From: Escherichia phage vB_EcoM_VR20
DNA length: 64,000 nt
Sequence record: NC_028894.1
Strand: one strand, 5' to 3'
In this document: positions 10,166-10,986 of the stretch, piece after piece
Position numbering within the stretch: the stretch's first letter is position 1
Layout: each line of letters begins with the position of its first letter
Translations under genes and position numbers: made by a program
Notes under the pieces: model-generated
Told to the model about the DNA's origin: nothing
The model's database searches: none
What the model saw: only the letters and a program-made list of their open reading frames with translations

Positions 10166-10912
10166 TTAACCTCTAATCAGTTTAAAAATTGACGCGTTCA
10201 AAGGTAGACCACGTTTCAGTTTTAATTTACCAATAAAACCAATCTTCTCAAAACGCTCAAGACCTTGAATGATTTTATCATAGCAATCAAAAAGCGTTTC
10301 AGCATTAGTTAATTTCTTGGTAACTTTCCAGTCATTACCTTTGAGCAATACATTCAATTTAGTAAGCTCATGACCTTCCGCAACACGGGAACCATCAATG
10401 CGAGCCTTCAGAGCAACCATTTTTAATTGGTTTTCTTTGGACTGCTCCGATTTACTCATTTGAGCATAATGCTTAACGCGATTCTCACGTTTGTGTTGGA
10501 TGTTCTTGATATGAGTATATGACTTTTTAATCTGTTCCCATTTCTCTGCAGTCAGATTTAACTTTTCAATCTTCTTGGCAGAGGGGCGAGCAATTTTTAC
10601 AGCAACATCATCGCGACGTTGTTTAAGCTCATCAAGGGACCAATCAGAACGCATGGTATTGTATTTCTTTTTAACAGGAATAACATTACCTTTGATATAA
10701 CCAATATCATTGTTAAAACGCTCTAATGATAACTTCTCATCTTCAATAGAGTTGTTAAATGCTTCACCAGAATAAGCACAAACTTTTTGGTCAAGAATGT
10801 TAACCAGATAATTAAAATCCAGGTTAAAGTCCTTACCGCGACGTTTAGCGGAAGCTTGAGTGTGTTCCAGACGACGTTTAACTTTCAGCGTTTTGGTTTT
10901 TGATAAAGTCAT
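10166..10912 (-). CDS. HNH-like nuclease-domain protein, possible freestanding homing endonuclease
   Basis: 248 aa; CAYSGEAF...SLERFNNDIGYIKGNVIPV resembles the core of phage HNH endonucleases, followed by a long basic region; own promoter upstream. Confidence 0.4.
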   Translation of the reverse strand: MTLSKTKTLKVKRRLEHTQASAKRRGKDFNLDFNYLVNILDQKVCAYSGEAFNNSIEDEKLSLERFNNDIGYIKGNVIPVKKKYNTMRSDWSLDELKQRRDDVAVKIARPSAKKIEKLNLTAEKWEQIKKSYTHIKNIQHKRENRVKHYAQMSKSEQSKENQLKMVALKARIDGSRVAEGHELTKLNVLLKGNDWKVTKKLTNAETLFDCYDKIIQGLERFEKIGFIGKLKLKRGLPLNASIFKLIRG

Positions 10913-10957
10913 GATATTTTTCTCATCTTACGGACGATTGAAAACTCAGTATGAAAT

Positions 10958-10986
10958 CATTATACACCATCCATTGGGTGTGTACA
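10958..10986 (-). promoter_or_regulatory. sigma70-type early promoter, -35 TGTACA, about 16-bp spacer, -10 TATAAT
   Basis: Minus-strand motif upstream of the HNH-like gene. Confidence 0.45.

Follow-up and report, generated by a model that had tools for sequence, protein, structure and literature searches.

A predicted PacI-type His-Me finger domain in the Srd orthologue of Escherichia phage vB_EcoM_VR20

The window analysed here is a stretch of 64,000 nucleotides from Escherichia phage vB_EcoM_VR20 (NC_028894.1), and positions are counted from its first letter. The minus strand carries five genes in tandem: modB-like, modA-like, srd, dda.1 and dda (Table 1). The srd open reading frame begins with ATG and encodes 248 amino acids and a stop codon. 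Its product is basic, with a computed pI of 9.9 and a combined lysine and arginine content of 22% overall, rising to 25% within residues 109–200, and the translation contains the string CAYSGEAF…SLERFNNDIGYIKGNV. An earlier note on this DNA, made from the letters alone, had quoted that string and described a 248-residue product with a Lys/Arg-rich region, all of which is confirmed. It had also placed the gene downstream of dda, which is mistaken: all of these genes are on the minus strand, and transcription reaches srd before dda.1 and dda. Three parts can be told apart in the product: an N-terminal domain predicted to be a PacI-type His-Me finger (HNH-like), a hairpin of basic helices and a small conserved block at the C-terminus. 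The modA/modB-like pair immediately upstream consists of tandem ADP-ribosyltransferase genes (phrog_832), whose match to the Pfam DRAT model is weak and sub-threshold.

Table 1. Positions of the srd gene, its neighbours, and the features assigned to the gene and its product.
Feature	Position	Strand	Basis or remark
modB-like gene	12266–11706	(-)	upstream neighbour
modA-like gene	11694–11047	(-)	upstream neighbour
Sigma-70-type (T4 early-type) promoter, TGTACA-16-TATAAT	10959–10986	(-)	motif scan, 10/12 matches
Terminator-like hairpin and T-run	10961–10984	(+)	overlaps the srd promoter on the opposite strand; probably a chance match
5'-UTR and ribosome-binding block, CGTCCGTAAGATGAGAAAAATATC	10913–10936	(-)	24 nt before the start codon
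srd orthologue, open reading frame	10166–10912	(-)	ATG start, 248 aa and stop codon
N-terminal PacI-type His-Me finger (HNH-like) domain, residues 1–108	10589–10912	(-)	predicted structure
C45, lone invariant cysteine	10778–10780	(-)	aligns with first Cys of PacI CxxC zinc ligand pair
Predicted active-site segment, E64-R65…Y72…N76…N85	10658–10723	(-)	conservation and PacI alignment
Codon of E64	10723–10721	(-)	
Codon of R65	10720–10718	(-)	
Codon of Y72	10699–10697	(-)	
Codon of N76	10687–10685	(-)	
Codon of N85	10660–10658	(-)	
Two long Lys/Arg-rich helices, residues 122–153 and 159–191	10340–10549	(-)	AF2 secondary structure
Conserved C-terminal block, residues 203–248, YDKIIQGLERFEKIGFIGKLKLKRGLPLNASIFKLIRG	10169–10306	(-)	conservation
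dda.1	10164–9865	(-)	downstream neighbour
dda	9868–8540	(-)	downstream of dda.1

The promoter match upstream of srd ends 46 nt ahead of the ATG and coincides with the end of the interval that the earlier note had delimited. Equivalent -35/-10 pairs are present at the same place upstream of srd in T4 and T6 (TTTACA-17-TATAGT) and upstream of the gene in Phi1 (TTGACA-17-AATAAT), and their conserved position fits the published description of T4 early promoters. The proposal that the gene has a promoter of its own is supported by these equivalents; the number of promoter-like sites in the region is not enriched, at 5 observed against 5.3±2.9 in shuffled sequences. The terminator-like hairpin on the plus strand overlaps the promoter and is probably a chance match. 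The ribosome-binding block directly before the start codon, CGTCCGTAAGATGAGAAAAATATC, is nearly identical in T4 and T6, while the remainder of the modA–srd spacer has diverged. This block could be a conserved translational or RNA-processing element.

The assignment of the gene to srd is based on the protein sequence and the gene order. The product matches phrog_1400 ('Srd anti-sigma factor') with an E-value of 4.8e-99, residues 4–248 aligning with positions 2–249 of the 251 in the profile. It is 68% identical and 83% similar to T4 Srd over 248/248 residues with no gaps. T4 Srd (NP_049634; srd, T4p019) has the same length and the same neighbours, modA and dda.1/dda, and differs from the VR20 protein only by the divergence typical of another genus (Tequatrovirus as against Gaprivervirus). 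A fully identical protein, CJ20_029, is encoded by the Gaprivervirus Escherichia phage CJ20. T6, T4, CJ20 and the distant Krischvirus Phi1, whose orthologue is 30% identical, all retain modB–(modA)–srd–dda.1–dda–…–dexA as their gene order, and the arrangement modB–modA–srd–dda.1–dda holds across Straboviridae genera. By sequence, the VR20 gene is the orthologue of T4 srd in a CJ20-like Gaprivervirus. As a genome feature it is ordinary, being an already known, annotated and conserved T4-type early gene.

The family is widespread. A tblastn search gave matches in 1169 phage records, 1080 of which cover at least 80% of the protein length; the T-even phage matches are about 68% identical, and the gene is annotated there as srd. 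The labels on the 1169 matching records are mostly srd or anti-sigma factor. Among the matches listed, the GenBank labels are inconsistent and also include 'decoy of sigma70', 'hypothetical protein', 'HNH endonuclease' (Roth80, Abraxas) and 'anti-termination' (EP01). A strong match to Dda occurs in 1473 phage records. Counted by host, the dda and srd records number 608 and 600 for Escherichia, 83 and 83 for Shigella, 30 and 30 for Salmonella, 33 and 32 for Yersinia, and 70 and 69 for Acinetobacter, so that srd accompanies dda in about 99% of the records from phages of these five hosts. Among Klebsiella phages, 279 records have dda and only 161 have srd; there srd has either diverged past tblastn detection or been lost in some lineages.

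These distributions bear on the reading put forward in the earlier note, which saw in the product an architecture reminiscent of Mob-type homing endonucleases. According to that reading, the gene would be a free-standing selfish element of the HNH type, cutting related phage genomes that lack it and copying itself into them. Such an element would agree with the HNH-like fold of the N-terminal domain, with a small basic protein expressed from its own promoter, with the 'HNH endonuclease' label carried by some GenBank relatives, and with the weak, sub-threshold HTH-like matches at the N-termini of some members of the wider superfamily. The protein is, on the other hand, a full-length member of the Srd family that is collinear with T4 Srd, and the gene is found in one and the same syntenic position in four genera or species, with identities between 30 and 100%. 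Its co-occurrence with dda in about 99% of the records from the five hosts is the opposite of a patchy distribution; in these phages the presence or absence of srd follows that of dda at close to 1:1 and is not sporadic in the manner of a homing endonuclease. The near 1:1 counts, together with the fixed synteny, indicate a vertically inherited gene. Profile searches, which the note had proposed as a check, gave no match to Pfam HNH, HNH_3 or NUMOD/IENR-type models even at E ≤ 1, and a six-frame scan of the window detected a single copy of the N-terminal domain. A Mob-type homing endonuclease is accordingly rejected on the grounds of family assignment, fixed synteny and co-occurrence with dda, and retains next to no likelihood. 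The gene proves to be srd, which the note itself had named as the outcome contrary to its reading.

The domain on which that reading was built is nonetheless present. In the AlphaFold model, which has a pLDDT of 89 over the full length and of 92.8 when residues 1–105 are modelled alone and template-free, the N-terminal part consists of helices at residues 5–24 and 33–40, strand β1 at 61–65, an Ω-loop at 66–76, strand β2 at 77–81, a core helix at 82–88 and a further helix at 93–108. As modelled, two helices followed by a β-loop-β-α unit correspond to the ββα topology of His-Me fingers. The top structural neighbours of the model are PacI, DraIII, Cas9 HNH domains, Hpy99I and the Gme HNH nickase. 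Given the model of the N-terminal domain, Foldseek places PacI first (3ldy_A, probability 1.00, TM 0.60), with the Gme HNH nickase and Cas9 HNH domains next. PacI heads the structural neighbours in two programs and is also the best sequence-profile match in the PDB. The predicted structure therefore places the N-terminal ~105 residues in the HNH/His-Me finger fold of the PacI kind, and the HNH-like core that had been suggested from the letters is upheld by this fold and by its PacI and HNH neighbours.

Among PHROG families, those labelled endonuclease, HNH endonuclease and endonuclease VII match the N-terminal domain with E-values from 5e-20 to 4e-9. Pfam and NCBIfam scans of the whole protein returned nothing significant, and a PADLOC scan gave no meaningful match. 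No Pfam model covers the N-terminal domain in 41 domain relatives or in 10 multi-domain relatives; Endonuclease_7 is weakly touched by one of the 41. When profiles were compared with PDB sequences, the N-terminal domain of the Srd clade by itself found no match, and the full-length family profile found coiled-coil noise only. The match to PacI came only after the profile had been widened with distant relatives: with the 41-relative profile, PacI is the best match in the PDB (E 0.0099, 19 bits), a score that is borderline when taken alone. Sequence identity between Srd and PacI is about 17–18%.

The residues that are conserved in this domain are informative as to its kind. In an alignment of 35 sequences of the Srd clade, reaching down to 27% identity, all of the invariant residues fall within the first 85 positions: A22, R25, K27, C45, A46, Y47, S48, E50, E64, R65, G71, Y72, G75, N76, V77, V80, K81, Y84 and N85. 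The N-terminal domain is the most strongly conserved part of the protein, whereas the middle varies. Among 234 domains taken from the 190 nearest cluster representatives of the superfamily, an acidic residue at position 64 is kept in 233, R65 in 233, Y72 in 233, N76 in 234 and N85 in 231. The pair E64-R65 aligns with the D-R of PacI at the end of β1, Y72 with the tyrosine of the Ω-loop ('EGY'), N76 with the asparagine before β2, and N85 with the metal-binding asparagine of the core helix; the aligned motifs read HCGYCG … LGVDRSDSFEGYSPQNARLACFICNRIKS in PacI and VCAYSG … LSLERFNNDIGYIKGNVIPVKKKYNTMRS in Srd. Judged from this alignment, Srd keeps the complete PacI catalytic set of an acidic residue plus arginine, the Ω-loop tyrosine, the structural asparagine and the metal-binding asparagine.

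The position of the catalytic histidine, at the end of β1, is held in Srd by R65. The earlier note had remarked that the first histidine of the canonical motif was not obvious, which is correct, and had suggested that the protein could be a degenerate derivative that only binds DNA. The substitute tyrosine of PacI and the metal ligands are, however, present and invariant, and the suggestion of degeneracy is unsupported. PacI has no catalytic histidine, a tyrosine of the Ω-loop takes its place, and the metal is bound by one aspartate and one asparagine. Groups of His-Me fingers that are regarded as inactive have lost the histidine and the substitute tyrosine alike. PacI is active with the histidine missing in this way, and Srd, which resembles it here, keeps the tyrosine and metal ligands, so that the absence of the histidine is not evidence of decay. 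From its sequence, the Srd domain appears to be of the PacI type rather than obviously degenerate.

The zinc site is a different matter. C45 is the lone invariant cysteine in the Srd clade, is a cysteine in 234/234 superfamily domains, and aligns with the first cysteine of a CxxC zinc ligand pair in PacI. The other three aligned zinc cysteines correspond to S48, K81 and Y84 in Srd, and the CxxC…CxxC zinc knuckle is absent.

Beyond the N-terminal domain, the two long Lys/Arg-rich helices vary in sequence and length among relatives and have only generic helical-hairpin or coiled-coil matches. The C-terminal block has the consensus YDIIIxGLxRFENLSxxDKxKLKKGLPLNAS, and neither a Pfam scan nor a comparison of the block profile with the PDB found a relative for it. 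Of the 190 nearest representatives, 93 carry both the N-terminal domain and the C-terminal block and are 191–344 aa long; the others have a single domain or tandem domains. A search of 1.84 billion representative proteins with the N-terminal domain profile gave 14,876 cluster representatives at E ≤ 0.001, with the common motif C…S/T-x-D/E-R-x-D/N…G-Y…N…N. This superfamily includes proteins with two to four tandem copies of the domain, one of them 852 aa long with four copies, and some members have Cys-rich or HTH-like N-termini, the HTH-like matches being weak and sub-threshold.

What is known of the function of Srd comes from T4. As described in papers citing Qi et al. (2015), T4 Srd stimulates RNase E, with whose N-terminal catalytic half it associates, and thereby speeds the decay of host mRNA. 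In a 2026 paper, Srd is described as a protein that 'binds Rne to stimulate degradation', without further mechanism. Expression of srd from a plasmid impairs the growth of E. coli. By orthology with T4 Srd, the VR20 protein would likewise bind host RNase E in its N-terminal catalytic half and would accelerate host mRNA decay early in infection. The gene would belong to the early host-takeover genes, expressed from its own sigma-70-type promoter and transcribed just ahead of dda.1 and dda. The His-Me domain is probably the part of Srd that engages nucleic acid, and it may still cleave nucleic acid or at least bind it.

A different role is implied by the records of T4 and T6, which carry the older label 'postulated decoy of sigma factors RpoD and RpoS'. 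On that account Srd would be an anti-sigma factor or a decoy of sigma-70/sigma-S that mimics sigma and titrates either the RNA polymerase core or a sigma partner. The historical annotation in T4, T6 and many other records speaks for it, as does the toxicity of the expressed protein in E. coli. Between Srd and E. coli RpoD, however, BLASTP detected no similarity (best E 0.94), the 35-sequence family profile gave an hhalign probability of 0.4% against RpoD, and the Pfam models of the Sigma70 regions had no match in the protein even at E ≤ 1. The best-conserved part of the protein is a nuclease fold, and later experimental work, as related in citing papers, ties Srd to RNase E. Measured against E. 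coli RpoD and the Pfam sigma-70 models, the 'anti-sigma factor' label finds no detectable support in the sequence, and an anti-sigma role for Srd seems very improbable.

There are two ways in which the His-Me domain could contribute. It may be that Srd is a catalytically silent adaptor whose domain only binds RNA or RNase E; RNase E would then be activated allosterically or by delivery of substrate, in a manner resembling RapZ. The analogy between RapZ and Srd has been drawn in the literature, and some His-Me domains, such as Smad MH1 and Enpp, are known to have turned into binding modules. The loss of the zinc knuckle in Srd would also be in keeping with a silent domain. Set against this, the known inactive His-Me groups have lost both histidine and tyrosine, whereas Srd keeps the tyrosine and both metal ligands invariant. 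The adaptor model is a serious candidate, although it falls somewhat short of being probable.

Alternatively, Srd itself could be an active, tyrosine-dependent nuclease of the PacI type whose own cuts underlie the phenotype. It might nick host RNA and so provide 5'-monophosphate ends, which the 5' sensor of RNase E prefers, or it might cut unmodified host DNA and help to bring about host shut-off. His-Me nucleases leave 5'-phosphate ends, which speaks for this reading. The full PacI catalytic set is retained and invariant, PacI is active with the same variant site, expression of Srd is toxic in E. coli, and the N-terminal domain is the best-conserved part of the protein. These points are opposed by several others: no nuclease activity has been reported for Srd, the papers that describe its effect at second hand ascribe it to a stimulated RNase E, Srd lacks the zinc sites by which PacI is stabilised, and the substrate and product are pure conjecture. 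An active nuclease appears rather unlikely. A more specific and quite doubtful version joins the two activities in a relay, in which Srd docks on RNase E and nicks host RNA, and the resulting 5'-monophosphate ends trigger the 5'-end-dependent pathway of RNase E. If this were true, the 'stimulation' of RNase E would be a two-enzyme relay and not allosteric activation, and the unnamed domain, with its ~15,000 cluster representatives and no Pfam model, would define a large family of His-less nucleases.

The explanation favoured here is the broader one, that the VR20 gene is an srd orthologue, that its product is a partner of RNase E, and that the product carries a PacI-type domain engaging nucleic acid. 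As a whole it is considered highly probable. Several points weigh against it. In the citing papers it is RNase E, stimulated by Srd, to which the effect on host mRNA is credited. Srd has lost three of the four zinc-ligand cysteines that align with PacI, and its sequence-level link to PacI is borderline alone. The structure is a prediction, and the conserved residues could have been retained for structure or for binding.

A nuclease fold of the PacI type, with the catalytic residues of PacI, is the best-conserved part of Srd. This has apparently gone unremarked in open-access papers: a search of that literature found none in which HNH, PacI or nuclease activity is mentioned in connection with Srd. 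Where relatives carry the label 'HNH endonuclease', as a scattered few do, the name fits the structure but leaves the mechanism unqualified. The domain assignment offers a testable lead on how Srd works.

Among known systems, the E. coli adaptor RapZ resembles T4 Srd in what it does: in both cases a protein that binds RNase E in its catalytic half stimulates cleavage. The analogy is functional only, as RapZ has no sequence or fold relationship to Srd. The two also differ in their targets, RapZ being specific to a single sRNA and Srd reportedly acting on mRNAs of the host. T4 endonuclease VII and the canonical HNH enzymes (Pfam Endonuclease_7, HNH and HNH_3; the Cas9 HNH domain; Hpy99I) differ from Srd in the active site, where Srd has arginine in place of the catalytic histidine, and in the zinc knuckle, which Srd lacks. 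PacI (PDB 3ldy/3m7k), the best structural neighbour, belongs to His-Me finger 'group 20' of Jablonska et al. (2017); it is likewise without the catalytic histidine and has an Ω-loop tyrosine instead. Srd and PacI have in common the D/E-R at the end of β1, the G-Y of the Ω-loop, the asparagine before β2 and the N-x-x-K/R of the core helix. PacI has two Cys4 zinc sites, while Srd keeps one of the four aligned cysteines. PacI is a homodimeric, site-specific DNA restriction enzyme of 142 aa; Srd is known as a partner of RNase E and, unlike PacI, carries a 140-aa helical and C-terminal extension.
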